Positions 1 to 36,075 of a stretch of DNA of 64,000 nt are shown one piece after another (position 1 is the first letter of the stretch; every line of letters begins with the position of its first letter). The stretch spans positions 203,530 through 267,529 of the forward strand of contig CAWEAM010000010.1 in NCBI GenBank assembly GCA_963807105.1. The letters run 5' to 3'. The stretch is from an uncultured Acidobacteriota bacterium. GTDB taxonomy: Bacteria > Acidobacteriota > Vicinamibacteria > Vicinamibacterales > UBA2999. Position numbers and translations under genes: made by a program. The notes below the pieces were generated by a model. That model made no database searches and was not told where the DNA came from. It was given only the letters and a program-made list of their open reading frames with translations.

Positions 1-551
1 GCCAGGATCGTCATCAACGGCAACGCAGCGCCGAGCCCCAGAATATGATCGTTCACCGCGCGCGAATACGGCAACGCGACGGTTGCACCGGCGAGGCTTG
101 CGGCCAGCGCAACGCACATGGGCAGCGGTAGCGACAGTTGTCGGCCTAATAGGAACACGCACCAGACTGCTATCACGTACGCAACGCCCGACGACCCGAT
201 CGTGATCCAGCGATAAAACACTTTCGGCTGGTCGCTCGCCTGCAGTCCAGTGATCGACTGCAGCGCCTTGTACACCCCTGCCATGAGCACCGCTGGAACC
301 GCCGGTTTGTGTGAGTAGAACGCCCCGTCGATGAAGACCTTGTCGCCGCCAATGCCCTGCCCAAACGGCGACTCGTCGATCGCGAAGGTATGCCGATCGA
401 CCAGGCTCTCCACGGTGGCGACGCGGCTGCTGTCGTTCCAGCTCGTCGGCTCCGGTCGGGCGCCGCCGACTGCAAGCGCGGCGGTCGCAGCGACGAGCAC
501 GGCGACGAGCAGCAGCCGCTGGAGGCGCGATGTACGATCGCGCTCGCTCAT
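1..551 (-). CDS. GT-C fold (PMT/ArnT-like) membrane glycosyltransferase, N-terminal part; the gene runs off the window
   Basis: Not in the ORF track because it is open at the edge. Hand translation of the reverse strand from the ATG at 551-549 gives 183 uninterrupted codons: MSERDRTSRLQRLLLVAVLVAATAALAVGG..SWNDSSRVATVESLVDRHTFAIDESPFG..FYSHKPAVPAVLMAG..YVIAVWCVFLLG. There is one TM helix, then a loop with a D-E pair, then a polytopic region. The ATG overlaps the stop of the upstream flippase gene (ATGA). Confidence 0.6.
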   Translation of the reverse strand, partial: MSERDRTSRLQRLLLVAVLVAATAALAVGGARPEPTSWNDSSRVATVESLVDRHTFAIDESPFGQGIGGDKVFIDGAFYSHKPAVPAVLMAGVYKALQSITGLQASDQPKVFYRWITIGSSGVAYVIAVWCVFLLGRQLSLPLPMCVALAASLAGATVALPYSRAVNDHILGLGAALPLMTIL

Positions 552-2032
552 TGCCCTGCCTTCGAGGGCAGCATTGGCAAGCCCATGTCTTCTCGCGTAA
601 TTTCGCCGAGCACGATCAGTGCGGCGACGTAGATCACGCCAAGCGCCGCGAGCTTGACGAGGATCAACGCACCCTCGACGTGTATGAATGCGCTTGTCAA
701 CCCGACGATGGCCGCAGCGGCGAGAACACGAAGCACGGTCGGCAGTCCATGCAGCGCGCCGAAGTGTCTGCGCGCCAGCACGCCTGTCACCACCACGCCC
801 GCAGCCACGCCGAGCACGAGCGTCATCGCGGCGCCGACCGGCCCAACCCGTGGGATCAGGAGGTAGTTGCCCACCCAGACCAGCGGCACGATGCTCGTCA
901 GCACGGCGGCCACGAGCCGCTGCCGTCCGGCCGCCATGAGCGCGTTCGCGAACACATCTACGATCGCGAACAGGCTGAAGCCGAGAAGCTGCAGCGGCAG
1001 AAACCGCTGCCCCTCGGCGTAGGCGCTGGAGAAGAGAAGCGTGAGCACTTCGGCGCCATTGGCACCGAGAACGATACACGCTCCGCCCGCCACGACGAGT
1101 GCAAACCGGCTCGCCTGGTGGATGTGGCGGACTGCACGAGCCTGGTCGTTCGAGGCCGAGGCCCACGCGACCGAAGAAAACAGCACGCCGGCCTGCACCG
1201 TTGGAATGACGGCGAGGATGCGCGCCAGATTCACCGACGCAACGTAATGGCCGACAACGTCGCCGCTCCCCGTCCATAAGCTCTGCAACGACCAGAGATC
1301 GAGATTGATGAGCACTTGACCCGCCACCAGGCACACCGCCATCGGCCCGGCGAACCGGGCGATTTCCTTTATCGTTCCGAGATCGACACGAAATCCGCTC
1401 GGCGGAAAGCGCAGGATCATGATGATGCAGATCGCGACACTCGAAAACACGGTGGCCAGAAGCGCCCGCTCGATCGAAAGACCGGTGGCGGCGAGCGCCA
1501 CGATCGCACCGACCCGGAGCAGACCGTAAAGGATCTGCGCAACCGCCATCACCCCGAAGCGGCGGCCGCCGGCGAGGATCCCTTCGTACGACGCGTAAAA
1601 TGCTGCGAACGGCAGGTCGATCATCGCCAGCCGGAAGAGGGGCGCCCCGTCGGGGATTCGCATCAGCTCGGCGATCGCCGGTGCCAGAAGCCAGCAGGCG
1701 AGAAATACCAGCATCGAAGAGGACAGCAGCAGCGCCTGCGCTGCCCGCGCAACCGCGCGCGGCTCGTGCTGCCCGTCGGCTATCAGCTTGGACGTGGCGG
1801 CGGGCACACCTGCGTTGACCACCATCTCCACCCAGATCAATTGCGAAATGATGACGCCGTAGATGCCGTAGGCGGCCGGCCCGAGCTGGCGCGTGAGAAT
1901 CGCCGCCGCGACATAGGCCGACGCGAAGAACACACCGCGCGCCAGCAGCAGCTGCTGCGTTCCTCGTCGCTGCCGCGCATAGGCGTCGTCAGCGGCATCG
2001 AGCGCCGAGTCGCGATCGAAATCGCTTCTCAT
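548..2032 (-). CDS. MOP-superfamily polysaccharide/oligosaccharide flippase (Wzx-like)
   Basis: ORF 548..2089. Multi-TM, with LLLARGVFFASAYVAAAILTRQLGPAAYGIYGVIISQLIWVEMVVNAGVPAATSKLIADG typical of Polysacc_synt/Wzx proteins. I prefer the ATG at 2032 (4 nt after the AKR stop) to the GTG at 2089, which would overlap the AKR gene by 53 nt. Confidence 0.8.
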   Translation of the reverse strand: MRSDFDRDSALDAADDAYARQRRGTQQLLLARGVFFASAYVAAAILTRQLGPAAYGIYGVIISQLIWVEMVVNAGVPAATSKLIADGQHEPRAVARAAQALLLSSSMLVFLACWLLAPAIAELMRIPDGAPLFRLAMIDLPFAAFYASYEGILAGGRRFGVMAVAQILYGLLRVGAIVALAATGLSIERALLATVFSSVAICIIMILRFPPSGFRVDLGTIKEIARFAGPMAVCLVAGQVLINLDLWSLQSLWTGSGDVVGHYVASVNLARILAVIPTVQAGVLFSSVAWASASNDQARAVRHIHQASRFALVVAGGACIVLGANGAEVLTLLFSSAYAEGQRFLPLQLLGFSLFAIVDVFANALMAAGRQRLVAAVLTSIVPLVWVGNYLLIPRVGPVGAAMTLVLGVAAGVVVTGVLARRHFGALHGLPTVLRVLAAAAIVGLTSAFIHVEGALILVKLAALGVIYVAALIVLGEITREDMGLPMLPSKAGQ

Positions 2033-2036
2033 GTCG

Positions 2037-3047
2037 TCATTTGCCGTGCGACAGCCACCGCCGTTCGTCCTCTGACAGCTCGAGGCCACAGGCGCTGGCC
2101 GCGTCCACGTAAGACGTGACGCTCCGCGCGCCGACGATGGCGAGGACGCGCGGATGATGGCGCAGCACCCAGGCTAGCGCAATCTGCCCGGGTGTGACGC
2201 CGCGCTGCCGCGCGAGCTCGCGGGCGCGCTGCAGGCGTGCGAGATTGCTGGCATCGAGAAACACCTTGTCGCCGAAGCTCACTGGCGTTGGTACGGTCTC
2301 GGCACCATCCGCGTAGGCCCGCGCGCGCGAGAAGAATCCCATCGCCAGGCTCGAGTAGGCGAGGAGCCACATTTCGCTCGCCTTGTACCACTCGCGGTCC
2401 GCGGCGTTCTCGTCACGCGAGAGCGTCAACGCGCTCTGCCACGGTGGATTTCGCCACGCTGCGAGACTGAACTGGACGCTGCTGACGGCGAACGGCTGCT
2501 GACCGCGCGACCGCGCGTATGCCGCCGCCGCGGCAATCCTGCTGGTCGGCCAGTTCGAAACACCCAGCGCGCGGATGCGGCCGTCGGCCACATGCTCGTT
2601 GAGCGCATCGACGAGCGGTCCCACATCCGTGGCGCCGTCGTCGTAATGGAGAAGATAGAGATCGATGTAATCGGTCCGCAGCGCCTTGAGCGAGCGCCCG
2701 AGATCGTCTGCGATCGCCCGCTTCGTCAAGCGCGACTGCCAGCGCGGTCCCGGGTGCGCGCCCTTGGTGATGATCGCCACGCGGTCGCGCAGCTTGCGCG
2801 CGTGCAGCCAGTCGCCGAGTGTGCGTTCGCTGTCGCCATAGGCGCGGGCGGTGTCGAACGCGGTGCAGCCAGCCGCGACGACGCCGTCGAACAGCTCGAA
2901 GTTCTGGGTGTTGCGCGCGCGATCGACGAACGGAGACGAGAACCGCCGTCCTCTGATGTAGACGAAGCGCCGCGCGCCCAGCCAATCGGTGCCCATGACG
3001 ATGCGCGACACGGGGGCGCCGATGCCGGCGATGTGCACGTAATCCAC
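2037..3047 (-). CDS. aldo/keto reductase
   Basis: C-terminal 336 aa of ORF 2037..3647: GTDWLG..FDTARAYGDSERTLGDWL..ITKGAHPG..LKALRTDYIDLYLLHYDD..IRALGVSNW..GVTPGQIALAWVL. The rest of the long ORF is R/A-rich and overlaps the methyltransferase gene. GTG starts are at 3047 or 3038. Confidence 0.85.
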   Translation of the reverse strand: MDYVHIAGIGAPVSRIVMGTDWLGARRFVYIRGRRFSSPFVDRARNTQNFELFDGVVAAGCTAFDTARAYGDSERTLGDWLHARKLRDRVAIITKGAHPGPRWQSRLTKRAIADDLGRSLKALRTDYIDLYLLHYDDGATDVGPLVDALNEHVADGRIRALGVSNWPTSRIAAAAAYARSRGQQPFAVSSVQFSLAAWRNPPWQSALTLSRDENAADREWYKASEMWLLAYSSLAMGFFSRARAYADGAETVPTPVSFGDKVFLDASNLARLQRARELARQRGVTPGQIALAWVLRHHPRVLAIVGARSVTSYVDAASACGLELSEDERRWLSHGK

Positions 3048-3049
3048 TG

Positions 3050-3763
3050 CTACGCGTTCTTGATCATCCACTGGATTGGCGCATGCGACCCGAGCGCGTC
3101 GCGCTCCCACAGCGCCAGCTTTTTGACCGGGTGTCCTTCGATCCAGTCGTCGATGGTCGCGATCGGTTTCGGGAACGAAAAGGGTGGCAGCTCCAGGTTC
3201 AGAAGACGGAAATTCCCGGTCGGGATGTTCTGATTCGCCGTGGACTCCGGAAACGTCGTGGTCAAAAGATATCGGATGTCGCTGCGCAGAAAATTGTCGA
3301 GCGCGAGCCAGATATTGGCGTCGGAGAAATGGAACAGGCAGTCGCGACACATCCAGACATCCGCCTGGGGCAGTGGATCGTGCGTGATGTCGAGGTGTCT
3401 GAACGACGTGTTGTCGTTGCCGAACGCGGTCTGATTCCGATCGACCAGCGCTGCGACGATGTCGGCGCCAAGATAGGTCGCCTCGCGGTCGCGCGGCACC
3501 AGGCGAAACCAGTTGTAGTCGCCGCATGGCGCGTCGAGGATGCGCCTGACGCCAAGCTGTGCAAACAGCGCCGGCAGCTCCTTTCTGATGTTGTCTGTGT
3601 ACTTGACAGTCGAATGCGATCCCGACACGCTTTCGGGATCGCCCCACACGTTGGTCTCGTAATACTGCGCGAAGAGCTCCTGATTGGTCCGCGTGCGTAG
3701 TCTCTCGATGAGTCGAACGCCGCCGGGGAGCCGCATCAGGATCGACTTGAGTGCCTGCTTCAT
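3050..3763 (-). CDS. class I SAM-dependent methyltransferase
   Basis: ORF 3050..3784 (TTG). ATG at 3763 is preferred. It has LDAPCGDYNWF (SAM-binding G-x-G-like loop), YLGADIV and DVWMCRDCLFHFS. Confidence 0.75.
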   Translation of the reverse strand: MKQALKSILMRLPGGVRLIERLRTRTNQELFAQYYETNVWGDPESVSGSHSTVKYTDNIRKELPALFAQLGVRRILDAPCGDYNWFRLVPRDREATYLGADIVAALVDRNQTAFGNDNTSFRHLDITHDPLPQADVWMCRDCLFHFSDANIWLALDNFLRSDIRYLLTTTFPESTANQNIPTGNFRLLNLELPPFSFPKPIATIDDWIEGHPVKKLALWERDALGSHAPIQWMIKNA

Positions 3764-3870
3764 GTTCGGTTCCGTAGCATACAACTCCCCTTAACTCCGA
3801 GACCGTATACGCGGGCGCGGCCGGCGTGGCTCGTTCCGGCGAGCTCGCGTCGTGAACGACCGATCAAGAT

Positions 3871-3972: not shown

Positions 3973-4030
3973 AGTGCCCGCCGCGACTCGCGGACGCCTC
4001 GAGCGAGCCGCTCACCAACGATCGATGAAC

Positions 4031-4479: not shown

Positions 4480-6141
4480 TTAGAGTCTCCCCGCGCGCGA
4501 TTCAGAGACGATGAAGTCGCAGGTGCGAACCGTCAGCGCCATGATGCTCAACGTGTGCGACTGATGGCCCGAGGACGGGAAGCACGCGCCATCGGTGACG
4601 AACAGATTCGGCACGTCCCACGACTGGTTGTAGCGGTTGAGCACCGACGTCCTCGAGTCGTCGCCCATCCGCGCGCCCCCCATCTCGTGAATCGCTCCAC
4701 CCGGATGAAAAGCGCCAAATGGGGTCACGACGTGCCGCCAGAGTGACGCGTAGATCGCCCGGCGCCTCAGGCTGGTCATGTCGCTGAGCGACGCGCGGAT
4801 GCGCAGTCCGGCGGCCGCCGCGATCTCGTGCATCGTCGTGGTCATATCGGCGACGAGCGTCCGATCGTTCGCCGAGTGCACGCAATCGATGTGCGCGACC
4901 GGAATTCCCCACGCGTCACGCCGGCTGGCGTCGATGGTGATGGTGTTGCTCGCGGAGGGCAGCATGTCGCCGAATCCGGCGAGGAAGAAGCCGCGACCGT
5001 GCCGGCCGATCGAGCCGAGCATGCTGAAGCTCCCCTGGTAGCTCGAACGCGGCGGTTCAGTGATGTTCTTGAAACCCGGCACGTAGACATAGGCGGACGC
5101 CAGGTCGTACGGATCGCGCTCGACGTCCTCGGCTGTGTGGCCCGCGCCGGCAAGCGACTGGGGCACGTCGCCGGACATCGCTGTCATGCAGTGATCCATC
5201 ACATAGCGGCCGAGCGTTCCGGAGGAGTTGCCGAGCCCGTGCGGATGATGGCCGCCGGCCGAATTCAGGAGGATACGGACCGATTCGAACGCCGACGCAC
5301 AGAGGACGATGATCCGGCCCTGGACGACTTCGGCTCGGCGCGTCACGCGATCGATGAACTCCACGCCTCGCGCCCGGCTGCCCGTGGCATCCACCTGCAC
5401 GCGCTTGACGACGGCGTCGCTGCGCAGCGTGAGATGGCCGGTCTGCAGTGCCGCGATCAGCGGCAACGGGATGCGTTGTGGATTGTGCGCGACCACCGGC
5501 GCCGCGACCAGTCGCCGCGCCGGCCAGCGGCCCTGGACGACGTCGCGGACGCGCTCCTCTGCCGCACTGAGCCGCCGCGGCGCAACGAACGCTCCATCCG
5601 GACGCTGCGGTAGTCCCTCTGGTGTGCCGTGCACCCCAAGAAACCGTTCGACGCGCGCGTACGACGGCTCCAGATCCTCATACGCGATCGGCCAGTCGAG
5701 CCCTTCACCGCCGTGCGCGCTCGGCTTGAGCTCGAAATCGGAAAATCGCGGCGCCACGCGTCCCCATGTGTGCAGCCGGCCTCCGACCTGACGGCCGCGG
5801 AACCAGTTGAACGGCCTTCCTGGCGCGCGGCTATACGGGTTTTCGCGATCGTTGACGTAGAGCTGTCGCGTCGCGCGCGTGCAGGCGAAGCAGCGCGCTT
5901 GCACGGGCTGCCCGGTGAGCGCGAGCCACGCGCGCTCGGGCATGCCGAAGTCGCGCGGACGTGGCGTCGGGAAATGATCGCTGGCGTTCACCTGCGGGCC
6001 GGCGTCGAGGAGGAGCACTTTCATGCCAGCCGTCGTCAGCTCGAGCGCCGCGAAGCAGCCCGCGGCCCCGGCGCCTACTACGATCGCGTCGAACACCGTG
6101 GAAGCGTCTGCCGCGTCTCCCGCGCCGATCACTGCCGTCAT
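4480..6141 (-). CDS. GMC-family FAD-dependent oxidoreductase
   Basis: C-terminal 553 aa of ORF 4480..7056, starting MTAVIGAG..FDAIVVGAGAAGCFAALELTTAGMKVLLLDAG (Rossmann GxGxxG). It ends ..GGARMGDD..VLNRYNQSWDVPNLFVTDGACFPSSG, the GMC C-terminal signature. The ATG at 6141-6139 overlaps the upstream stop at 6138-6140. Confidence 0.85.
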   Translation of the reverse strand: MTAVIGAGDAADASTVFDAIVVGAGAAGCFAALELTTAGMKVLLLDAGPQVNASDHFPTPRPRDFGMPERAWLALTGQPVQARCFACTRATRQLYVNDRENPYSRAPGRPFNWFRGRQVGGRLHTWGRVAPRFSDFELKPSAHGGEGLDWPIAYEDLEPSYARVERFLGVHGTPEGLPQRPDGAFVAPRRLSAAEERVRDVVQGRWPARRLVAAPVVAHNPQRIPLPLIAALQTGHLTLRSDAVVKRVQVDATGSRARGVEFIDRVTRRAEVVQGRIIVLCASAFESVRILLNSAGGHHPHGLGNSSGTLGRYVMDHCMTAMSGDVPQSLAGAGHTAEDVERDPYDLASAYVYVPGFKNITEPPRSSYQGSFSMLGSIGRHGRGFFLAGFGDMLPSASNTITIDASRRDAWGIPVAHIDCVHSANDRTLVADMTTTMHEIAAAAGLRIRASLSDMTSLRRRAIYASLWRHVVTPFGAFHPGGAIHEMGGARMGDDSRTSVLNRYNQSWDVPNLFVTDGACFPSSGHQSHTLSIMALTVRTCDFIVSESRAGRL

Positions 6142-7844
6142 GTCTGCTTCCGGCCGACGAAGCGATACAGGATCACGCCGTCGCCGACGAACGCACGCTC
6201 GAGCCCGGGCACGTCGTCGAGCGTGGCCATCCGATCGTTCCACTCCCACGGCGACCAGATCACCCACGTGACGCCGTTGGTGGCAAGCCATGCCGACCGC
6301 TCGTCGGGCGTCGCCGACGAGGTGAAGAACCAGTCGCGCGCGGCGCGCTTCTCCGGCTCCCGCAGAGTCATGTGCCAATGCCCGTGGAACATGCGCGTGT
6401 CGGCGAGCGTGGGCGCCCAGCCGGCCGTCCAGAATCCCGCGAGCGTGATGTCGCGATCGCTGGCGTGCTCGTGCAGATACTCGAAGAGCCGCTGAGTATC
6501 GGCGCTCAGGAAATAGTTGGGCGCGCGCGGCGTGTAGGCCGATAGATGCCGCTGCAGCATCGCGCCGGCACCGATCGTCGCGATGCCCACGTACCCGTAG
6601 CACAGCGCGCGCGCCAGTGTCCCGCGTGAAGTCTGCGAGCCGGGTCGCGGACTCGAAGGCGATGTCTCGGCGTGCCCGATTCGGCGCTCGCGCCGATATC
6701 GCACAGCAAGTCGCGCGAGGCGGTCCGCGCCGACGGCGGCGAGCAGCGAAAGCGGAACGTGGATGCCACCAGGCAGTCGCGCCTGTTTGCCGCCGAGCCG
6801 GAAGGGCGTCATCAGAAACAAGAAGACGAAGATCACCCAGCACAAAGGCAAGGCGTAGCGCGATCGCAGGGAGGCCTTTGTGAGAACGACGGCGGCCGGC
6901 ACGCCGAGAATGCCGAACGACGCCAGATAAAACGGCCAGCGCTGCACCTGCATGATGTCGTTGGCCATCGCCGCGTAGATCGGATCGATTCGGATGATCC
7001 AGATGAGGTACACCGCCGCCGGCAGTGCGCCAAGCGCGACGGCGGCGGCGTGCCACGCCGAGGCCCTCGGAAATTGTCGCTCCTCAGCCCACAGGAACAG
7101 CGCGTACGTTCCCGTGCCGAGAATCAACGACAGGAAATCCCACGGATGCGTCCACGACAGAAAGAACGACAGCGCCATGGTTGCTGCGACGAACGCGTGC
7201 GGCTTCGGCCGCAGTTGACCGCGCCCCAGCGCCGCGCGCGTCGCAAACAGCGCGGTCAGAAGCGCCAGCGCGAGGATGAGGTGAGGCAGATTGCCGAGCA
7301 CATAAAATGTGTTGCCTTCGGGAAGGTGCTCATCGCCATGCGCCGTTCCCGGCCGCAGGATATCGAGTACCCAGCCGCCCCCGGCGGAGAAGCAGACGAA
7401 CGCGAAGTAAAGGCGCTGGAGCGATCGTCGTCTGAGGAGCAGCGCTCCGAACCACCACGCCGCCGCCAGCAGACCCACGCCGAAGACGACGCGGCTTACC
7501 TGAAACGACGTGAGCGCGCTCATTCCGAAAGCTTTGCAGAGCGCCGCCTGGAAGTAGACTTCCGGCAGGAACAGGCGGGGCATGTGCGGCTCGGACGTAA
7601 ACGGGTTGCCGACGAGAAACGCGCCTTCCGCGACCTCACGCGTAAAGGCGAGGTACTGATTGGCATCCTGCGCGTTGAATGGCGGAACCGCAAAGAACCG
7701 TGTGTTCGCCGGCCCGAACATGTAGCCGTACAGATAGGGCAGGCTGCTGACGAGTAGTGTCGCCGCGCCCATGATCAGCAGCGCGCACGCGTGTCGCGCC
7801 CGCCGGTGATCGGCCGCAGCCGGCACGGTGCGCTGCGCGACCAT
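6138..7844 (-). CDS. large polytopic membrane protein with C-terminal soluble domain; possible GT-C-type enzyme
   Basis: 568 aa with more than 10 hydrophobic segments. The first loop is FNAQDANQYLAFTREV, and there is a soluble tail of about 130 aa. It is translationally coupled on both sides (TGATG at 7842-7846, ATGA at 6138-6141). Assignment of function is weak. Confidence 0.6.
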   Translation of the reverse strand: MVAQRTVPAAADHRRARHACALLIMGAATLLVSSLPYLYGYMFGPANTRFFAVPPFNAQDANQYLAFTREVAEGAFLVGNPFTSEPHMPRLFLPEVYFQAALCKAFGMSALTSFQVSRVVFGVGLLAAAWWFGALLLRRRSLQRLYFAFVCFSAGGGWVLDILRPGTAHGDEHLPEGNTFYVLGNLPHLILALALLTALFATRAALGRGQLRPKPHAFVAATMALSFFLSWTHPWDFLSLILGTGTYALFLWAEERQFPRASAWHAAAVALGALPAAVYLIWIIRIDPIYAAMANDIMQVQRWPFYLASFGILGVPAAVVLTKASLRSRYALPLCWVIFVFLFLMTPFRLGGKQARLPGGIHVPLSLLAAVGADRLARLAVRYRRERRIGHAETSPSSPRPGSQTSRGTLARALCYGYVGIATIGAGAMLQRHLSAYTPRAPNYFLSADTQRLFEYLHEHASDRDITLAGFWTAGWAPTLADTRMFHGHWHMTLREPEKRAARDWFFTSSATPDERSAWLATNGVTWVIWSPWEWNDRMATLDDVPGLERAFVGDGVILYRFVGRKQT

Positions 7845-8959: not shown

Positions 8960-8991
8960 GCGGCGCTTCCTTCGCCTCGGACTCCATCACG

Positions 8992-12522: not shown

Positions 12523-12554
12523 ATAGAGAATGAGTGCGCGACAACCTTGTTGCC

Positions 12555-17370: not shown

Positions 17371-17587
17371 GCCATCCCCCGCGGCCTCGGTTTCGAGCAC
17401 GCGGCAAATCCCGATAGGATGACGAAGCAGGATGCGGAATGCAACGTGCTTCGAGCAGCGTGTACGCGCGTGAATTGTTGTGCAGCCCATCATGACGGCC
17501 TCGCGCGTTGGATCGGATTCGGCGATCATGAGGGTTCGTGGTGCGCCGGCCGATAGGAACGATGACGATCTTGCAAGGGGTTGCGCC

Positions 17588-28686: not shown

Positions 28687-29589
28687 ATGGCTGAGAAGCG
28701 ACTCAGCTTCGCCGTCGCCATTCCGGTCAGCAACGAAGCGCAAAATATCGTCGCCCTGCTCGAGCGAGCCGCCGCAGCGCGGCCGGCGCGGATTCTGGTC
28801 GTGAGTGACGGCTCGACCGACGACACCGACGCGCTGGTCCGCGGTGTTGCCGCGCGCTCGGCAGTGCCGGTCGAACTCCTCACCTCGCCCGTGCGGCGGG
28901 GAAAAGCCGACGCCGTCAATCGCATCATCGCCGCCCTGGCCGGCATCGAGGTGATCGTGATGATCAGCGGCGACGCCATGCCCGACGAGAACTGCATCGC
29001 CCGGCTCGTGGCCGCGTTCGCTGACGAGACGGTCGGCGTCGCGGCTGGCCGCCCGGTGCCGCAAGGCCCGGCCGGCGTCCCGGCGGTGGAGGTGTCGCGC
29101 CTTCTCTGGGCGGTCCACCACCGGATCGTGCTGGCGAGCCCGAAGTCCACGGAAATCACCGCGTTTCGCAACGTCTTTCCGGGCATCGATCCCGATTCGC
29201 GGACCGATGAAGCCGCGATCGAAGCGGCGGTGACCGACCGCGGTTATCGAATCGTGTACGTCGCCGACGCGCTGATCCTGACCAACTGCCCGCTGTCGTT
29301 GCGCGAGTACGTGAAGCAGCGCACGTCGGTCACGCTTGGTCATCTGGCGCTGGCGCGTGACGGGTACAGCGTCGGCACTCTGTCATGGGGTCAACGGTTC
29401 CGGGCAGTCGGCGAGGTGTGGCGGGAAGAGGGCGTCAAGCTGACGACGCTCGTCCGCGCAGTGCTGCTCGAAGCCAGCGTTTACGGCGCCGCGTGGCTGC
29501 GGTTTCGCTTCGGGCCGCGGATTCACGGCGTATGGTCGCGCAGCGACTCCACCAAGCGATCCTTCGGGCGACAGCCACCACCGGCGTGA
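28687..29589 (+). CDS. GT2-family glycosyltransferase
   Basis: LSFAVAIPVSNEAQNIVALL, ILVVSDGSTDDT and VIVMISGDAMPDE. Confidence 0.8.
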   Translation: MAEKRLSFAVAIPVSNEAQNIVALLERAAAARPARILVVSDGSTDDTDALVRGVAARSAVPVELLTSPVRRGKADAVNRIIAALAGIEVIVMISGDAMPDENCIARLVAAFADETVGVAAGRPVPQGPAGVPAVEVSRLLWAVHHRIVLASPKSTEITAFRNVFPGIDPDSRTDEAAIEAAVTDRGYRIVYVADALILTNCPLSLREYVKQRTSVTLGHLALARDGYSVGTLSWGQRFRAVGEVWREEGVKLTTLVRAVLLEASVYGAAWLRFRFGPRIHGVWSRSDSTKRSFGRQPPPA

Positions 29590-29606
29590 GCCACGCGAAA
29601 CACAGA

Positions 29607-31565
29607 TCAACGGCAATCGATGACTTCGGTGCCTGGCGTGACTCCGATCAACCCGCGAGCGATGCGCGCGCGCGCGTCGTACTGGGGATTTGCAAGAGGC
29701 GATCGGTCACCTCGTCGAGCGGCTGACGCATGAAGAACAGCCGCCCCCAGATTTCGAGCGCCAGCATGTTGAAAAAGCCATGCACATTCGACTGCCAGCC
29801 GTCGACGATCGCGAGCAGCCCCGGCTCGTGCAACTCGAAGGTACTCGAGGCAGAATCCGCCGGTAAAGAAATCCCGGCGGGCGAGCGGCGCCAGATAATC
29901 CTTGACCGGCAGCGGGAAGCCGACCTTCTTACGGTGTACGACATCGTGCGGCACGTAGCGCGCGGCGATCTCCTTGAGCATCCATTTGTCGTGACGGCCG
30001 CGCAACCGGTACGAGAGAGGCAGGTTGACGATCGCCTGCACGAGCTGACGGTCGAGGAAAGGCGTACGGCATTCGACCGATGCCGCCATGCTCATCCGAT
30101 CCAGCCGGCGCAGGAGCGGTGTCAGAAAGTTGGTCATGTCCGCGAGCATGGCGCCCAGCACCGCGCGCTCGCCCTCATCCTGGACGAACGCGTAGGCCGC
30201 CTCGGAGCGCACGCGCAGATCCTCGCGTGCGAACTTGTCGAGGAAGTTGATGGTATGCGGAAGCAGCCCGTCGTACTCGGCAAACGTCGTCGCCGGCACG
30301 CCGTCCACCGCATAGCCGGCCATCGCCACGGCCTTCCTGATCTTTGCCGGCAGCAGCCGCAGCATCTTTTGCAGCCAGAGGAATTGACGGTACTGGCGAT
30401 AGCGATGCATGTAGCCGCCGAAGAGCTCGTCGGCGCCTTCGCCGCTGAGGAGCACGATCACCCCGTGCTGACGCGCGAACTCCGAGATCAGGAGAAACGC
30501 GACGGAGTTGGGGTGCGTGAGCGGCAGATCGCTGTGATAGATGGCGCGCGCGAGATTTGCGCGAAACGCCTCGGCGGTCAACGGATACGTCAGCAGCGCG
30601 ATGCCGAGCGCGTCGCTCACCTGCTTGGCGTAGCGATGCTCGTCCAACTCGGCGTAACCCGAAACCGATACGTGAAACGCGGTGACGTCGGGCAGGTCGC
30701 GGGCGCACAACGCCGTGATCAGGCTCGAATCGATGCCGCCACTGCACAACGTCCCGAGCGGCACGTCGCTCACCAGCCGCGCGCGGACGCTGGCCTGCAG
30801 AAGCGATTCGATTTGCCCAGTCACCGCTGCAGGCTCGGTGCGCTGAAAGCGCTGGTATGCGTCCGGGTCGATATCGCCCGACGGCGCGTAGTAGCAGCGC
30901 GGCGCGCCCGCCTTCCCCTGCGTCACCTCGAGGAAGTGGCCTGGCGGGAGCGACGACAGATTGTCGATCAGCGTGTCGGGTGAACCGAAATCGGTGTTGC
31001 GATAGAGCGACCACTCGATCAGCCGCTGGTAGTTGGGGCGGCGATCGTCGCACACTTCCAGCAGGGCCTTGACCTCCGACGCGAACACGAAGTGCCCGGC
31101 GCGGCGCGTGTAGTAGAGGGGCTTTTTGCCGAACCGATCGCGCGCCAGCGTGAGCGTGCCGCTCTGGCGATCGAAAATCGCGAGCGCGAACATGCCCACC
31201 AGGCGGTCGAAGCACGCGTGCCCCCAGTGCTGGAACGCACGCAGCACCACCTCGGTGTCGGTCTTGGAACGGAACGTGGCGCCTTCTGCCGCGAGTTCGT
31301 CGCGCAGCTGCCGGAAGTTGTAGGTCTCGCCGTTGTACGCAATCCAGTAGCGCCCGGACTCTTCGGACATCGGCATGTGCCCGGCGGGCGAGAGGTCGAT
31401 GATACTCAGGCGATTCGACCCAAGACACACGCTGCCCAGTGCGGCCACACCCTGGTCGTCGGGACCACGGTGGGCCTGCAGCTCGCACATCCTGGTTATG
31501 GTCGCGACATGGTCCTGTTCGCGGCACGCCGCCGTTCCACAGACCAGTCCCGCGATGCCACACAT
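29607..31565 (-). CDS. asparagine synthase (glutamine-hydrolysing) family amidotransferase; C-terminal about 70 codons probably out of frame
   Basis: ORF 29607..31649. The start is MCGIAGL at 31565 (N-terminal Cys nucleophile). It has ..SGGIDSS (PP-loop). After ..FFTGGFCLEY the translation turns R/A-rich, while the overlapping frame (ORF 29648..29944) reads ELHEPGLLAIVDGWQSNVHGFFNMLALEIWGRLFF. Confidence 0.85.
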   Translation of the reverse strand: MCGIAGLVCGTAACREQDHVATITRMCELQAHRGPDDQGVAALGSVCLGSNRLSIIDLSPAGHMPMSEESGRYWIAYNGETYNFRQLRDELAAEGATFRSKTDTEVVLRAFQHWGHACFDRLVGMFALAIFDRQSGTLTLARDRFGKKPLYYTRRAGHFVFASEVKALLEVCDDRRPNYQRLIEWSLYRNTDFGSPDTLIDNLSSLPPGHFLEVTQGKAGAPRCYYAPSGDIDPDAYQRFQRTEPAAVTGQIESLLQASVRARLVSDVPLGTLCSGGIDSSLITALCARDLPDVTAFHVSVSGYAELDEHRYAKQVSDALGIALLTYPLTAEAFRANLARAIYHSDLPLTHPNSVAFLLISEFARQHGVIVLLSGEGADELFGGYMHRYRQYRQFLWLQKMLRLLPAKIRKAVAMAGYAVDGVPATTFAEYDGLLPHTINFLDKFAREDLRVRSEAAYAFVQDEGERAVLGAMLADMTNFLTPLLRRLDRMSMAASVECRTPFLDRQLVQAIVNLPLSYRLRGRHDKWMLKEIAARYVPHDVVHRKKVGFPLPVKDYLAPLARRDFFTGGFCLEYLRVARAGAARDRRRLAVECAWLFQHAGARNLGAAVLHASAARRGDRSPLANPQYDARARIARGLIGVTPGTEVIDCR

Positions 31566-31668: not shown

Positions 31669-31986
31669 CTAGAACTGGATCAGCCGGTTGTAAATGATGC
31701 TCACAGTGCGGCCGAACGCGTAGCCGACCACGAACGCGTAGACGAACCCGATGAAACTGCCGAGAAACGTCACGCTGTAGCCCGGAAAAAACATCGAGAG
31801 CAGCCCGAGATGCGGGCCCACCACCGCGCCGCCCTTGAAGACGAGGACGTTCGTGGCGACGAAGAGCCCGACACCGAGCAGCAGGCCAAACGCGATGCCC
31901 CACCCCTGCTCGTTCATCCGGAGCAGCGTCTTGTTCACATAACGAAGCTCTTCGGGCTTGAGGCTTTCCTGCATCAATTCGCTCAT
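31669..31986 (-). CDS. small 2-TM membrane protein (paralog of the next gene)
   Basis: ATG at 31986 (MSELMQESLKPEEL..). It has FFPGYSVTFLGSFIGFVYAFVVGYAFG. The start overlaps the upstream stop (TGATG). Confidence 0.55.
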   Translation of the reverse strand: MSELMQESLKPEELRYVNKTLLRMNEQGWGIAFGLLLGVGLFVATNVLVFKGGAVVGPHLGLLSMFFPGYSVTFLGSFIGFVYAFVVGYAFGRTVSIIYNRLIQF

Positions 31987-32411
31987 CAGATGTGATCCAG
32001 GAATGGCTGGGTCAAATCGGCTTTCGTGCGGATGACGAACAACCAGAGCGCCGTGAACAGGTTCTTCAGAAACCCGAGGAACCAGCCGGCGACGAATCCT
32101 GTGACGAACGCCCAGAAGAACCCGATCGCCGCGCCGGCGAAGCTCACGGTGTAGCCGTAAAAGAAATGGCTGAGGTAGAGCATCCACATGCCGTCGACGG
32201 GGGCGGCAACGACGACGACAATCGTGGCGAGCGCGACCAGCGCGCCACTCGTGAGTCCGGTCGCGACGCCAAGCGCCGCCTTGTGCACCGGCGCAAACGC
32301 GTACCGCGCAGCCAGCGGCAGCTTCTCGTCCTGGGTGTCGCGAAGAGTCTTCACCGGCGTCCTTCCGTGAGCAGGGCCGAAACCCTTCACCGCGCTCAGC
32401 GTCCTCGCCAT
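31986..32411 (-). CDS. small membrane protein (paralog of the previous gene)
   Basis: ATG at 32411 (MARTLSAVKGF..). It has FFYGYTVSFAGAAIGFFWAFVTGFVAGWFLG, which aligns with the neighbouring gene. Confidence 0.55.
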   Translation of the reverse strand: MARTLSAVKGFGPAHGRTPVKTLRDTQDEKLPLAARYAFAPVHKAALGVATGLTSGALVALATIVVVVAAPVDGMWMLYLSHFFYGYTVSFAGAAIGFFWAFVTGFVAGWFLGFLKNLFTALWLFVIRTKADLTQPFLDHI

Positions 32412-32471
32412 ATTATGCGCCGCTCCCTTGCCGTGCAACGCCGCCCGTCACGCCGCGAACCATCTGCGCCG

Positions 32472-33959
32472 CTACACCGCCGCCTTGAGCGGCGCGGTCT
32501 CGAGTTTCTGTTCTTCGTGGTATTCGAAATCGGTGTTGACTTCCCACAGATCGTGCGCCGCGCCCTTCATGTTCCAGATCGCCATCATCGCGGTCAGCAT
32601 CGAGTGGTCCTGGTTGTTGTACTTGTGCATGCCGTTGCGGCCGACGGTGTGGAGGTTCCTGATCGGGTCGATGTAGCTCCGCACCACGTCGAGGTGACCG
32701 CGATACACCGAGTCGTAGATGGGATACGCCTTCGGCATGCGAATCACCGCACCGTCGACGACGTCGGACGCTACGGCGAGGCCGAGTTCCTCCAGCTCCT
32801 GCGCCGCCCGCGCGATGAGCGCCTTGTCGTCGCTCTCCCACAGGCCGTCGCCCTTGAAGCAGAAGTACTCCATGCCCAGAACCGTGGTGTTGGGCGTCGG
32901 CACCATCGCCGCGCTCCAGTTGTTGAAGTTCTGGATGCGCCCCACGTTGACCCCCGGCGTATGGATGTAAATCCAGTTGTCGGGAAAGAGCTTGTCGCGG
33001 TTGAGGATGAGCGCAACGACCAGGAAGTCGCGGTACTTGAGGCCTTCGGCCGCGCTCCGCACCGCCTCGGGTGGCGCCGGATCGAACGCCCGCACCAGCG
33101 ATCGCACCGGCATCGTTGAGATGAAATGGTCGCCTTCGAAGCGCCGTTCGCCGTCCGGCGTCGCCGCGCGCACGGCCTGCACGCGCCCGTTGGCGCACTC
33201 GATGGCCGTGACGCGGTGCTGCATCAGCACCTGGTTGCCGAGCTCGACGACCCGATCGCGCGCCGTTTCCCACATCTGTCCCGGTCCGAGCCGCGGATAT
33301 TGGAATTCGTTGATCAGCGTCTTGATCTTGGTGGAGCGCTTGTTGAGCGAGGTCGCGTTGAGAATCGCGCGCGCGAGCGACAGCCCCTGGATGCGCTGCG
33401 CCGCCCACTCGGCGCGGATCTCCGTGCACGGGATCCCCCAGACCTTTTCGGTGTAGGTCTTGAAAAAGATCTCGTAGAGGCGCTTGCCGAATCGATTGGT
33501 GACCCACTGCTCGAAGTTCTCTTCGACGGGGTGCGGCTTATAGTGCCACTTGACGTAGCTGGCGACGATGGCCAGCGCGGTAAACGGCCCGAGCGCCTGG
33601 AGCGCGTTCATCGCCTTGAGCGGGTAGTCGAAATACTTGCCGCGATAGTGGATGCGCGACATGCGCGGCACCGAGATGAACTCGTTGCCGAGCAGCTCGC
33701 GCCACAGCGCCTCGACCGGCGCGATCTTGGTGAAGAACCGATGGCCACCGATGTCGAAGCGGTAGCCTTTGTACATGGCCGTGCGCGAGATGCCGCCCAC
33801 CATATCGTCGCCTTCGAGGACGGTGACCTTGTAGCCCTCTTTCGAGAGCAGATAGGCGGCGGTCAGACCGGCGGGTCCGGCGCCGGTCACGACAATCCGG
33901 TTGCCCGGCTGCAAGCGATCAACAATGCGAGCACTACTCATGCGAGCCGGTGAGGTCAC
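32472..33959 (-). CDS. FAD/NAD(P)-binding oxidoreductase (amine-oxidase / protoporphyrinogen-oxidase-like fold)
   Basis: IVVTGAGPAGLTAAYLLSKEGYKVTVLEGDDMVGGISRT..GYRFDIGGHRFF. 495 aa. Confidence 0.8.
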   Translation of the reverse strand: MTSPARMSSARIVDRLQPGNRIVVTGAGPAGLTAAYLLSKEGYKVTVLEGDDMVGGISRTAMYKGYRFDIGGHRFFTKIAPVEALWRELLGNEFISVPRMSRIHYRGKYFDYPLKAMNALQALGPFTALAIVASYVKWHYKPHPVEENFEQWVTNRFGKRLYEIFFKTYTEKVWGIPCTEIRAEWAAQRIQGLSLARAILNATSLNKRSTKIKTLINEFQYPRLGPGQMWETARDRVVELGNQVLMQHRVTAIECANGRVQAVRAATPDGERRFEGDHFISTMPVRSLVRAFDPAPPEAVRSAAEGLKYRDFLVVALILNRDKLFPDNWIYIHTPGVNVGRIQNFNNWSAAMVPTPNTTVLGMEYFCFKGDGLWESDDKALIARAAQELEELGLAVASDVVDGAVIRMPKAYPIYDSVYRGHLDVVRSYIDPIRNLHTVGRNGMHKYNNQDHSMLTAMMAIWNMKGAAHDLWEVNTDFEYHEEQKLETAPLKAAV

Positions 33960-34350
33960 CGGACGAGCAGCATAGCAAACCCAACGCCACTCGTCGTCAT
34001 GGCGTGTATGCCGTGCGTGTGTGTCGTGGCGTGCAACTGGCGCTGGTTGACGCTGGCGCTGCCCGATTATCGACCGATTCGTAGACTAAAGTCGCGGGCT
34101 GGCTGGACTGCCGCGACTCTGGCGCCTGCCTGAGCCATCAAGCACAGCAAAGGGCGGGCGCCGGCGTTCGGCCCGAGGAGGCCTGTGCATCGGCGCGCGT
34201 GCTGGTCGAATTTTCTAACGAAAAATCTCGTGGTAGCCTCTTTTTCGCAGCCATTCCGCCGTCTGCCACCTCTGCAGCGCGCCACCACGCCCGCGTCCTC
34301 CGGCAGCGTCAGTGGAGCCAGACCTCTGGGCGTAGTTTTGTGGTGATACC

Positions 34351-36075
34351 GTGATCGACGTGCCGGCCGGCGAGACCAACGCGCCCGCGACTACTCAGTC
34401 GCGCAGCCATCCTGCGGTGGCCGTTCGAGCCACGCACGCGCTCCGCTCGCTGGGCGTGGCGGCGGTCTGCGTGCTCGCGCTCGCCATTGGCGGCAACGGC
34501 ATTACCGACGAAGGGCACGTCTCGCTGCACGGCGACATGCCGAGGCACCTGATGAACGGGGTGTTCTTCCTCGACCTGACGCGCGACTTCCCCTTCCGCA
34601 ATCTCGACACCTTGATCGAGTACACACGGCACTACTACGCGCGCTATCCAGCGCTGTCCCTCGGACTGCATCCACCGCTCGTCGCGCTCGCCGAAGCGCC
34701 GGCCTACGCGCTGTTCGGCGTGTCGGTCGGTGCGGCGAGAGTGGTCGTGCTGTCGTCGTACGTGCTCGCGACCGCGCTGGTCTACGTGCTCGCCCGGAAG
34801 ATGCTGACGACCTGGCCGGCTCTCTTTGCGGCGGCGCTTTTCGCGCTCAGCCCGCACATCGTGATCCTCTCGCAATCCGTGCTCTCCGAGATGCTCACGC
34901 TGGCGCTGCTGCTCGCGGCGACCTGGTTTCTCGACCGGTTCTCGGTCACCGAGCGTGGTAAGGATCTCACGGCATTCGCCGTCGCCGCTGTGCTGAGCCT
35001 GTACGCGAAGCAGGTGGCGGTCTTCGTCTTTCCGATGTTCGCGTTCATGCTGCTCCAGCGGCTCGGTTTCCGCCAGCTGTTCCGTCGCGACATCCTCGCG
35101 GCGGCGATTGGCATGATCGTAGCGGCGCTGCCGCTGGCGTTCATGACGTGGATTCTGTCGGGGATGAACGTCAGCGCCAGCATCTCCGCGCTGACCGCGC
35201 CACCCGCGACTCCGTACAGCGTTCTCCGCGAGGCGCTGCTGGAGCAGTTCGCGCTGCCGGCGATTGTGCTCAGTGCGATTGGGCTGATTCGCGCGTTCGT
35301 GATTTCGCTCCGCTCGCGTGACTGGACGCCATTCATGTGGGTGGTCGGCGCGCTCTCGGCGCTCGTGTGCATGGTCGAACTGGCGCCGTTCGAGCCGGCG
35401 CGCTACGGCATCTACGCCGTGCCGGCACTCTGCGTGCTTGCCGGCCTCGCGCTCGCCGGCCTGCATGGTCGCCTGTTGATGCCCGTCGGTGTGGTGGTGG
35501 CGGTCGTGGTGCTTGCCGCGCAGGGCATGCAGGCGTTCTCGCGGCCGGCGGTACGCGGCGCTCGCGGCTACGAGGCGGCGGCGCAATTCGTCATCGATTC
35601 GAATCCGGGACCGACGGTCCTCTTCAGCGGCGACATCGACACCGGGTTTTTCACGTTCTTCATCCGCAAGCACGATGCGCAACGCCGATTGGTGGTGTTG
35701 CGATCAGACAAAGTGCTGACCACGTCGTTCATGGGCATGCCGGCTATCCAGGACCGCATCGCCCGGCCGGAAGAGATCTACGCGGTCCTGCATCGATTCG
35801 GCACGCGCTACGTCGTCATCGAAGACCGGCCGAGCGTGTCGCGCGTGCTCGAATGGCTGCGCGCCGAGCTGCGATCGCCGCATTTTGCCGAACGGCGGCG
35901 AATTCCGATCGTCACGTCGGACGTCAGGCTCGCCGGCACCGATCTCGTGGTGTACGAATTCCTCGACGCGACGCCGCCGGATCCGCGTGCCGTGCTGTCG
36001 CTCAGCATCCCGGTCATCGGCCGATCGGTCGACGTGAGTCTGTCCGATTTGATCAACCGCCGCAATCTCCGCTGA
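34351..36075 (+). CDS. GT-C fold glycosyltransferase, GT39/ArnT-like
   Basis: 574 aa, polytopic. GNGITDEGHVSLHGD lies after TM1, followed by HYYARYPALSLGLHPPL, and there is a soluble C-terminal domain. Confidence 0.75.
   Translation: MIDVPAGETNAPATTQSRSHPAVAVRATHALRSLGVAAVCVLALAIGGNGITDEGHVSLHGDMPRHLMNGVFFLDLTRDFPFRNLDTLIEYTRHYYARYPALSLGLHPPLVALAEAPAYALFGVSVGAARVVVLSSYVLATALVYVLARKMLTTWPALFAAALFALSPHIVILSQSVLSEMLTLALLLAATWFLDRFSVTERGKDLTAFAVAAVLSLYAKQVAVFVFPMFAFMLLQRLGFRQLFRRDILAAAIGMIVAALPLAFMTWILSGMNVSASISALTAPPATPYSVLREALLEQFALPAIVLSAIGLIRAFVISLRSRDWTPFMWVVGALSALVCMVELAPFEPARYGIYAVPALCVLAGLALAGLHGRLLMPVGVVVAVVVLAAQGMQAFSRPAVRGARGYEAAAQFVIDSNPGPTVLFSGDIDTGFFTFFIRKHDAQRRLVVLRSDKVLTTSFMGMPAIQDRIARPEEIYAVLHRFGTRYVVIEDRPSVSRVLEWLRAELRSPHFAERRRIPIVTSDVRLAGTDLVVYEFLDATPPDPRAVLSLSIPVIGRSVDVSLSDLINRRNLR

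Follow-up and report, generated by a model that had tools for sequence, protein, structure and literature searches.

A GT-C-rich locus that may combine Wzx-dependent glycan assembly with glycosyl and acyl transfer outside the membrane

The stretch of DNA under study, a 64-kb segment (hereafter the window; positions 203,530 to 267,529 of contig CAWEAM010000010.1, assembly GCA_963807105.1) from an uncultured bacterium, carries in its first 36,075 nucleotides a glycan locus with five polytopic proteins, here labelled A to E, which are assigned by sequence profile or by predicted fold to the GT-C class of glycosyltransferases. These are interspersed with a GtrB/ArnC-like enzyme predicted to load sugar onto polyprenyl phosphate, a Wzx-like flippase, cytoplasmic Leloir glycosyltransferases (GTs) and membrane-anchored SGNH proteins. 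We favour, with modest confidence, the view that this is a composite envelope-glycan locus joining Wzx-dependent assembly with several extracytoplasmic GT-C and SGNH steps. A previous interpretation of the letters and open reading frames (ORFs) of the window, the sequence-only reading, had put the locus forward as its best candidate for an undescribed system. The gene order indeed matches no characterised locus that we found, yet the parts are of known kinds, namely Gtr-type or multi-component transmembrane glycosylation together with a Wzx pathway, and the whole is not one conserved system, its core recurring only on two further contigs. From the clustering of its GT-C genes, the locus looks less like a system of an entirely new kind than like an unstudied route to the construction of the cell surface.

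A codon-usage gene model called 50 genes in the window, 28 of them within positions 1–36075, and its calls matched the gene coordinates of the sequence-only reading; the raw ORF lists are crowded because the G+C content of the window is approximately 65%. All called genes were scanned against Pfam (thresholds: PMT_2 26.1 bits, PIG-M Mannosyl_trans 23.4 bits, Methyltransf_25 27 bits) and the genes of the locus against NCBIfam, while an Rfam search of the window returned no match. The locus is truncated at position 1, where the gene for A runs off the left edge.

GT-C proteins and the lipid-sugar synthase

Three of the five polytopic proteins (C, D and E) and a sixth one outside the locus (F) exceed Pfam thresholds for GT-C families; A and B match nothing in Pfam or NCBIfam. 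B was modelled with AlphaFold2 on 43 of its 47 homologues (pLDDT 93.9), and its confident structural matches in the PDB (Foldseek) are all GT-C enzymes with a probability of 1.00, headed by STT3 (2e-9, TM-score 0.59) and continuing with DPY19, AglB, AftA, PglB and ArnT; the first match outside the class is a transporter with an E-value of 0.03 and a TM-score of 0.12. For A we used its nearest full-length relative, P0074 (66% identity), as a stand-in, the AlphaFold model of which (pLDDT 93.5) likewise matches only GT-C structures with a probability of 1.00, including AglB, ArnT, PglB, AftB, Pmt4, ALG9/12 and Emb. With four proteins placed by Pfam profile and two by predicted fold, all six are assigned to the GT-C class, as the sequence-only reading had suspected of A to E. 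An identity of A or B as Wzy, O-antigen ligase or transporter was considered and rejected, there being no such structure among the confident matches. These profile and structure checks had been set beforehand as a possible refutation, and they placed none of the proteins in the Wzy, ligase or transporter families; given the GT-C identities and the uncharacterised gene order, neither of the two outcomes that would have spoken against the sequence-only reading was found.

The five GT-Cs of the locus are not paralogues of each other. A profile–profile comparison of families A and B revealed no relation, and searches of PDB chain sequences with B, E and the profiles of families A and B gave no meaningful match. 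An exhaustive search places 848 representative clusters (at 50% identity) in family A, mostly of 440–490 aa and sharing the motif AID..S...DK..I.GHFYSDKPP, where a word-indexed search with the 183-aa fragment had returned only 5 fragments; none of nine full-length members scanned has a Pfam match, and the named members are called ‘hypothetical’. Those of the B homologues that bear a name come from metagenome-assembled genomes of Armatimonadota, and family B is almost confined to that phylum. A few of its members match Pfam DUF6541 (P0025 at 33 bits), and the invariant residues of the family are N57, Y64, R118, D171, P175, E176, H489 and W490. In the alignment of family D, D142 and P144 are invariant and D35 and K141 are conserved in at least 90% of sequences.

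Four of the proteins had been said to carry an Asp-Glu (D-E) pair directly after the first transmembrane (TM) segment, at the position of the catalytic motif of GT39 protein O-mannosyltransferases (PMTs). The pairs are present in A, C, D and E, located 5–28 residues past TM1, with basic residues preceding TM1 and an N-in topology. All aligned members of family A and all three orthologues of C retain the first-loop Asp, in the latter as part of a WGDE motif, and at least 90% of family D do so; family A does not preserve the Glu. The first loop of B lacks a D-E pair and shows a non-invariant Asp within the consensus DANQY, the invariant D171 and E176 lying further on. D-E in loop 1 is common to many PMT_2 proteins and hence not diagnostic of GT39. 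A to E have no match to Pfam PMT (PF02366) or MIR at E≤0.01, and C, D and E match PMT_2 (PF13231) only. Similarly, no window GT-C matches the ArnT model of NCBIfam at E≤0.1, and ArnT appears solely as a structural neighbour. As to the GT66 enzymes STT3, AglB and PglB, B has neither an STT3 match in Pfam nor a WWDYG motif, its invariant C-terminal motif being G-H-W (488–490). F had been described as GT87-like; its membership of the GT-C class stands, while its sole match is to the PIG-M family and there is none to GT87 (PF09594).

The enzyme encoded at 19618–20679 had been likened to GtrB and ArnC and described as translationally coupled to a GT-C gene, and both points hold. It aligns with Synechocystis GtrB (5ekp, 8e-14) over residues 18–307, including the TM hairpin, and with ArnC at 4e-12; its best NCBIfam matches are ArnC, PgfS and PpgS, all of which are polyprenyl-phosphate transferases and all of which remain under cut-off. 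ATGA overlaps join the stop codon of D to the start of this GT2 gene and the stop of the latter to the start of a methyltransferase gene. In this context the donors of the GT-Cs may be polyprenyl-phosphate or polyprenyl-diphosphate sugars. The start of A, in turn, overlaps the stop of the Wzx-like gene (548–2032), in whose product a simple hydropathy scan counts 16 hydrophobic peaks, over-splitting the true helices. A general partnership of A with Wzx was rejected, since A-family genes elsewhere do not adjoin Wzx. Besides this MOP protein, the products of 25566–25958 and 31669–32438 are flippase candidates by size only.

In the anchored SGNH proteins, the triad motifs GDS and DxH are invariant across the four from the window and one each from the related contigs L005 and L006 described below; two of the four (22861–23955 and 7844–8935) are paralogues with 45% identity.

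Gene order beyond the window

A syntenic core, comprising approximately 548–13355 plus 25976–27034 and 29607–31490, recurs on two uncharacterised metagenome contigs, L005 and L006. The order in L005 is SGNH with TM, FkbM (67% identity), C (49%), SGNH (55%), B (61%), GMC oxidoreductase (64%), aldo-keto reductase (AKR, 64%), Wzx (60%), a second GMC, GFO (63%), GH1 and AsnB (67%), with a partial homologue of SGNH 13665–15122 at the same relative position. L006 retains C (56%), SGNH (63%), B (65%) and GMC (71%) and adds another SGNH and PMT_2 pair as well as two more polytopic proteins. The synteny search proposed by the sequence-only reading thus yields a core shared with two contigs and, as detailed below, multi-GT-C clusters in Armatimonadota, but no characterised exopolysaccharide (EPS) or O-antigen locus of the same order. 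The region reads as a mosaic of modules around one core of C, SGNH, B, GMC, AKR and Wzx.

GT-C genes and genes for membrane-anchored SGNH proteins are recurrent neighbours, at 7844–12322 and 20676–23955 in the window, at L005:1867–6357, at L006:2706–10711 and at L070:8529–11320, the last being a further metagenome contig. Within the window C sits between two SGNH genes and D beside one. This recurrent pairing suggests coupled glycosyl and acyl transfer outside the membrane, which has not yet been studied.

Away from the core, the family A and family B genes occur in a variety of settings. Other A-family genes are solitary, as are B homologues of 45–52% identity. One solitary A-family gene (L151:8001–9650) is flanked by DUF1501, PSCyt2 and PSD1 genes, neighbours that we take to be typical of Planctomycetota. 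B homologues of 48–52% identity in L001, L007 and L009 (at about position 10001) lie outside glycan loci; a conserved hypothetical gene of 175–179 aa precedes each of the three on the opposite strand, and in L007 and L009 a 500-aa fusion of Hexapep (LbH) and CBM9 domains follows downstream. A genome scan with protein D alone gave no match. The GMC oxidoreductase has more than 529 relatives in a metagenome scan (best 44% identity), and none of those in soil metagenomes accompanies a GT-C module. Such soil relatives (31–44%; L073–L094 and others) very often form tandem arrays of two or three paralogues away from any glycan genes. The GMC thus belongs to a general family of soil sugar dehydrogenases, its link to GT-Cs being lineage-specific.

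Clustering of GT-C genes is not peculiar to the window. Run over genomes that represent each GTDB species once, the B profile yielded 60 loci. Armatimonadota (Chthonomonadaceae, Armatimonadaceae and Capsulimonadaceae) account for most of those that carry a name, and the best is 50% identical to B. On this distribution the window would probably stem from a lineage of Armatimonadota that lacks a close species representative, and not from Acidobacteriota, the phylum under which GTDB places the assembly (Vicinamibacteria, Vicinamibacterales, UBA2999). Here, a distant B-like gene (approximately 25% identical) often lies within a same-strand array of large polytopic proteins; among 35 polytopic neighbours scanned, 13 match YfhO, 10 PMT_2 and 1 GT87. 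One clade of the phylum conserves an 11-gene cluster with six GT-C genes, seen for instance on chromosome CP070816.1 (L032:4682–19661). It begins with signal peptidase I and a 137-aa EamA-like membrane protein, followed by five same-strand GT-Cs (YfhO-like, PMT_2/PMT, B-like, weak PMT_2 and YfhO), and continues on the opposite strand with a D-like PMT_2/PMT gene, overlapped by a gene for a 248-aa GT2 whose best match is Dol-P-Man synthase (5mlz, 4e-31), and then a GT4 and a GT2. The order is kept at 47–78% identity in L015, L016, L023 and L026, L015 having no match to one weak PMT_2 member; it is partly present in the shorter L017, L061 and L068 and reduced in L014, L018, L040 and L056. Eight of the 60 loci (L032, L015, L016, L017, L023, L026, L061 and L068) accordingly hold a multi-GT-C cluster. 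Matches of the family D profile to the cluster's D-like gene have E-values between 1e-43 and 1e-16, and this gene lies beside the polyprenyl-phosphate-type GT2, with the B-like GT-C some 4 kb away. Since B-type and D-type GT-Cs and such a GT2 occur together in both the window and the cluster, a functional link between them can be argued. As a rough check on the clustering, the six GT-C sequences of the window were searched together with three family profiles; 1.03 Mb of unrelated soil contigs gave 0 matches and the window gave 6, a comparison that is biased because the queries match themselves.

Remaining genes and borders of the locus

The features of the locus are collected in Table 1. Pfam matches, TM segments and motifs confirm the previous counts of two further GT2s, two GT4s, one Wzx-like protein, three methyltransferases, one AsnB and four anchored SGNH proteins. 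Three of four supposed oxidoreductases are borne out as such; the fourth (32472–33914) is instead closest to UDP-galactopyranose mutase (UGM), its nearest solved chains being UGMs of the eukaryotic type (4dsg, 6e-20), and suggests a furanose sugar. Absent from the earlier inventory were two alkaline-phosphatase-superfamily paralogues (24014–25525 and 27059–28657). They are cytoplasmic by prediction, 35% identical and bracket the small 4-TM protein and the GFO/IDH/MocA gene; neither has a solved relative by sequence or an NCBIfam name.

Table 1 Predicted features of the locus and of the outlying GT-C gene F
Feature	Coordinates	Strand	Remarks
GT-C ‘A’	1..551	-	First 183 aa of a polytopic protein that the window edge truncates; GT-C family without annotation
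Wzx-like MOP-family flippase	548..2032	-	Polysacc_synt 68 bits, Polysacc_synt_3 52 bits
Aldo-keto reductase, cytoplasmic	2037..3047	-	Aldo_ket_red 176 bits
Probable S-adenosylmethionine (SAM) methyltransferase	3050..3784	-	Methyltransf_25 24.5 bits, under threshold; absent from L005
GMC flavoprotein oxidoreductase, sugar-dehydrogenase type	4480..6132	-	GMC_oxred_C 77 bits
GT-C ‘B’	6138..7844	-	~11 TM helices and 130-aa C-terminal alpha/beta domain; GT-C by predicted fold
Membrane-anchored SGNH/AlgX-like esterase or acyltransferase	7844..8935	-	ALGX 39 bits, Lipase_GDSL_2 38 bits; 1 TM
GT-C ‘C’ (PMT_2)	8992..10674	-	PMT_2 32.6 bits
SGNH protein, 3 N-terminal TM segments	10985..12322	-	Lipase_GDSL_2 39 bits, ALGX 30 bits
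FkbM-family methyltransferase	12555..13355	-	Methyltransf_21 56 bits; TIGR01444 73.6 bits (cut-off 37.7)
SGNH protein, 5 N-terminal TM segments	13665..15122	+	Lipase_GDSL_2 46 bits
GT4 Leloir glycosyltransferase	15190..16314	+	Glycos_transf_1 125 bits; no NCBIfam equivalog
GT2 Leloir glycosyltransferase, EpsD-like	16465..17400	-	Glycos_transf_2 103 bits; EpsD 152 bits, under cut-off
GT4 Leloir glycosyltransferase	17588..18826	+	Glyco_trans_1_4 67 bits
SAM methyltransferase	18881..19621	-	Methyltransf_12, Methyltransf_11 47-49 bits; ATGA-coupled to GtrB-like gene
GtrB/ArnC-type polyprenyl-phosphate GT2	19618..20679	-	GT2 domain, then 2 C-terminal TM segments
GT-C ‘D’ (PMT_2)	20676..22331	-	PMT_2 30.3 bits; ATGA-coupled to GtrB-like gene
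Membrane-anchored SGNH protein, 1 TM	22861..23955	+	ALGX 24 bits, under threshold; divergent from D
Alkaline-phosphatase-superfamily enzyme, no signal peptide	24014..25525	+	Phosphodiest 62 bits
Small 4-TM membrane protein	25566..25958	+	130 aa; weak CopD match under threshold; lipid-sugar flippase candidate by size only
GFO/IDH/MocA sugar dehydrogenase	25976..27034	+	GFO_IDH_MocA 66 bits
Second alkaline-phosphatase-superfamily enzyme	27059..28657	+	Phosphodiest 68 bits
GT2 glycosyltransferase	28687..29589	+	Glycos_transf_2 59 bits
AsnB-type glutamine amidotransferase	29607..31490	-	Asn_synthase 251 bits; TIGR01536 426 bits, over cut-off
Two paralogous small 2-TM proteins	31669..32438	-	105 and 150 aa; no Pfam match
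UDP-galactopyranose-mutase-like flavoenzyme, PRK07208 family	32472..33914	-	NF005548 704 bits (cut-off 389)
GT-C ‘E’ (PMT_2)	34351..36075	+	PMT_2 47.0 bits; right border of locus
GT-C ‘F’, PIG-M-like	40141..41367	-	Mannosyl_trans (PIG-M) 33 bits; outside the glycan locus, adjoins two fused ABC exporters

The nearest solved chains to the GMC oxidoreductase are the alpha subunit of FAD-glucose dehydrogenase (6a2u_B, 7e-31) and the large subunit of fructose dehydrogenase. The otherwise tight minus-strand run of genes around it is interrupted by a gap of 695 nt (3785–4479) that contains direct repeats of 61, 42 and 30 nt and inverted repeats with 34-nt arms, resembling repetitive extragenic palindromic (REP) or miniature inverted-repeat transposable element (MITE)-like repeats, and that is missing from the syntenic L005. 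A small Tat-signal subunit of the GMC enzyme was sought in this gap and rejected, as it holds repeats only and no credible gene. The pair of 2-TM proteins (31669–32438) lies directly downstream of the UGM-like flavoenzyme and has the common motif FFxGY(S/T)V(T/S)FxG..IGF; the sole match of the pair is a weak one to holin_4 (35–37 bits against a cut-off of 70).

On its right side the glycan locus ends near 36075, because 36884–38194 encodes a true PaaK (701 bits, cut-off 646). Genes for enoyl-CoA hydratase and PaaK (36117–38194) follow E on the same strand at a distance of 41 nt, so that either E is co-transcribed with genes of aromatic-acid catabolism or the border of the locus falls within these 41 nt. 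F is separated from the locus by the PaaK gene and adjoins a tandem pair of fused ABC exporters, each 614 aa long (40141–45460), with which it could form a separate export and glycosylation unit.

A composite pathway, its rivals and known systems

In the pathway that we favour, a large share of the chemistry would take place at the outer surface of the cytoplasmic membrane. The GtrB/ArnC-like GT2 would, judging by homology, charge polyprenyl phosphate on the cytoplasmic side with a sugar taken from a nucleotide sugar, and the coupled methyltransferase may modify the sugar so loaded. The lipid-linked sugar would then be flipped, by the MOP/Wzx-like protein or by one of the small membrane proteins. 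D, C, B, A and E, the fold and first-loop Asp of which are described above, would transfer sugars from lipid-linked donors to acceptors on the outside, whether polysaccharide, lipid or protein, and the four anchored SGNH enzymes with their conserved triad would attach O-acyl groups to the same glycan or take them off. In the cytoplasm, the two GT4 and the two other GT2 enzymes may build a lipid-linked oligosaccharide for export by the Wzx-like protein, with the UGM-like mutase providing a furanose and AsnB an amidation; keto or epimerised sugars may come from the redox enzymes GMC, AKR and GFO.

Several observations count against this pathway. All enzymes of the locus fall short of the NCBIfam equivalog cut-offs for glycan functions. 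The window contains no match to GtrA or to EamA (Pfam and NCBIfam) that would reveal a small flippase of the GtrA or SMR/EamA type, and neither a priming phosphoglycosyltransferase nor a polymerase, which leaves the Wzx branch incomplete as seen. E, with phenylacetate-catabolism genes next to it, may not belong to the locus at all. The relative of D with 59% identity lies beside a gene for a pyrroloquinoline quinone (PQQ)-repeat protein and has no GT2, and the relative of A with 66% identity lies at L070:10001–11320, on another contig from the same sample as L005, outside the gene order of the window and amid genes for PEP-CTERM, AsnB, GT4, an SGNH protein like 10985–12322, and RmlCAB. Because the closest relatives of D and A are found outside this order, the five GT-Cs may serve several unrelated acceptors.

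A possible though doubtful alternative is an ordinary Wzx/Wzy-dependent EPS or O-antigen locus whose Wzy, Wzz, exporter and priming transferase lie to the left of the window or elsewhere, the GT-Cs being accessory Gtr-type decorators of side chains in a GT-C-rich phylum. Wzx, two GT4s, two GT2s, AsnB, methyltransferases and acyl-modifying enzymes are what EPS loci commonly contain, the setting of the A homologue in L070 and the recurrence of multi-GT-C clusters in Armatimonadota are in keeping with it, and the locus is truncated at position 1. The last point bears on the absence of Wzy, Wzz, Wza and an initiating transferase that the sequence-only reading had stressed: no called gene of the window matches Wzy_C, Wzz, Poly_export, Bac_transf or Glycos_transf_4 in Pfam, but, as the locus continues past the left edge of the window, this does not establish a general absence. 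What speaks against an ordinary locus is the count of five GT-Cs to four Leloir GTs, far from the usual ratio, the fact that the gene translationally coupled to Wzx encodes a GT-C and not Wzy, and the core of L005 (two GT-Cs, SGNH, GMC, AKR and Wzx), which has no Leloir GT, Wzy or priming transferase within 16 kb.

Two related proposals shift the weight further towards the outside of the membrane. The broader of them, which we regard as speculative and rather unlikely, holds that Armatimonadota assemble, or extensively modify, a major glycan of the envelope on the outer side of the cytoplasmic membrane. Five to six different GT-Cs would do this work, supplied by one polyprenyl-phosphate sugar synthase together with a small flippase; the window locus would be a lineage-specific, serotype-like elaboration with two Pfam-less GT-C families, paired SGNH acyl enzymes and a DprE1/DprE2-like GMC and AKR pair epimerising the donor sugar. 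If true, this phylum, probably a diderm one, would have arrived by convergence at an equivalent of the way mycobacteria assemble lipomannan and arabinan. The narrower one, an improbable account in our estimate, is that the window itself encodes such an assembly line, in which successive GT-Cs build the chain from polyprenyl-phosphate monosaccharides in the manner of lipomannan, lipoarabinomannan (LAM) or arabinan, again with GMC and AKR as the donor-epimerising pair. Five different GT-C families with one polyprenyl-phosphate GT2 would suit it, as would the Armatimonadota cluster with its six GT-Cs, one Dol-P-Man-synthase-like GT2 and small EamA-like membrane protein, the retention of GMC and AKR in L005 next to the MOP flippase and the GT-Cs of the core, and the UGM-like enzyme with its hint of a furanose. 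Against this, the window has no UbiA-type phosphoribosyltransferase and no DprE1/DprE2 homologue (no UbiA, FAD_binding_4 or SDR match in Pfam for the locus), no enzyme for a lipid anchor or primer was identified, and the relatives of GMC elsewhere form tandem pairs of catabolic appearance without GT-C genes.

Protein glycosylation likewise strikes us as improbable. Here, the PMT_2-type enzymes would use a polyprenyl-phosphate sugar to O-glycosylate proteins that are secreted or reside in the membrane, comparable to actinobacterial Pmt or streptococcal PgfS/PgfM1/PgfM2, and/or B or A would move a Wzx-flipped oligosaccharide en bloc in the way of PglB. The PMT-like position of D-E past TM1, STT3, AglB and PglB as the best structural neighbours of B, PgfS among the best matches of the GtrB-like GT2, the coupling of A to Wzx and the signal peptidase I gene at the head of the 11-gene cluster can all be cited for it. 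They are countered by the missing PMT, MIR and STT3 matches and the lack of WWDYG in the family B alignment, by the failure to identify a Ser/Thr-rich acceptor candidate, and by the SGNH, AsnB and redox enzymes, which suit a polysaccharide better. Finally, the notion that independent housekeeping GT-C genes are neighbours by chance in a GT-C-rich genome can draw on the lack of paralogy among the five and on the solitary or unrelated settings of close D and A and moderately distant B relatives, but it is made very improbable by the order of C, SGNH, B, GMC, AKR and Wzx kept on two other contigs, the translational couplings of A with Wzx and of D with GT2 and methyltransferase, the recurrent adjacency of GT-C and SGNH genes, and the co-occurrence of B-like and D-like genes in the Armatimonadota cluster.

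Fimbriimonas ginsengisoli is reported in its genome paper to have a visible capsule yet no recognisable EPS cluster (PMC4072686), and we found no study of Armatimonadota surface glycans and nothing relevant on glycan systems of the phylum, on such clusters or on DUF6541. The window locus and the six-GT-C cluster offer concrete candidate genes for these glycans. They also add two unannotated GT-C families, A being found on varied contigs (one of them Planctomycetota-like by gene content) and B near-exclusive to Armatimonadota. Cultured members of the Armatimonadota exist, and if one of them carries the cluster, genetics and glycan analysis become feasible.

Among known systems, Wzx/Wzy loci resemble the window locus in their Wzx-like flippase, GT4, GT2, AsnB and methyl- and acyl-modifying enzymes. 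They differ from it in that a GT-C holds the wzx-coupled position; in addition, no called gene of the 64-kb window, which truncates the locus, encodes a Wzy, Wzz, Wza or priming transferase. Extracytoplasmic O-acetyl enzymes of the SGNH/AlgX type include AlgX, AlgJ, PatB and the SGNH domains of OafA and OafB. The window proteins are like them in being anchored, with an outward Ser/Asp/His triad and, for two, an ALGX match over threshold, and unlike them in having no acetyl-supplying MBOAT or AT3 partner in the window, for which reason a role as esterases is equally possible.

By its sequence matches the locus is neither a GT39 PMT system proper, nor one of the STT3 family, nor the decaprenyl-phospho-arabinose (DPA)/arabinan pathway, to whose DprE1/DprE2 pair GMC and AKR would be analogues at most. 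With the synthesis of lipomannan, LAM and arabinogalactan in Corynebacterineae (Ppm1, PimE, MptA-C, Emb, AftA-D; PMC3229680) it shares the large number of GT-Cs, fed in those organisms, on the outside of the membrane, by polyprenyl-phosphate sugars. The Armatimonadota cluster includes a Dol-P-Man-synthase-like GT2, and the UGM-like enzyme of the window implies a furanose. In contrast, the window GT-Cs match Emb and Aft by fold only and not by sequence, and there are no homologues of UbiA or DprE1/E2.

The closest parallels are the Gtr-type three-component systems (GtrA/GtrB/GtrC of Salmonella and Shigella, ArnC/ArnE-F/ArnT and the pentofuranose systems; Kelly et al. 2024, PMC11127046) and the transmembrane glycosylation systems of Gram-positive bacteria (CsbB/GtcA/YfhO, GacI-L, PgfS/PgfM1/PgfM2; PMC8035078, PMC12041528). 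The locus departs from the Gtr type in having five GT-Cs of five unrelated families instead of one, two of these families being outside Pfam, in its four anchored SGNH enzymes interleaved with the GT-Cs, and in lacking a recognisable GtrA-family or SMR flippase and a phosphoribosyl-pyrophosphate (PRPP)-dependent synthase. It agrees with it in the GtrB/ArnC-type GT2 coupled to a GT-C, in the presence of a MOP-superfamily transporter, comparable to the MATE flippase proposed for the pentofuranose systems (PMC11127046), and in auxiliary redox enzymes that could diversify the donor sugar. Gram-positive systems belong to a different phylum, the envelope of Fimbriimonas having been inferred from its genome to be diderm (PMC4072686), and the locus has none of their teichoic-acid or rhamnan genes; a YfhO-type GT-C is lacking in the window, while the 11-gene cluster of Armatimonadota has two. 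What they have in common with the locus is a GtrB-like synthase with one or more PMT_2- or YfhO-type GT-Cs nearby, and in these Gram-positive systems several GT-Cs can serve different acceptors from one donor (PMC8035078, PMC12041528).

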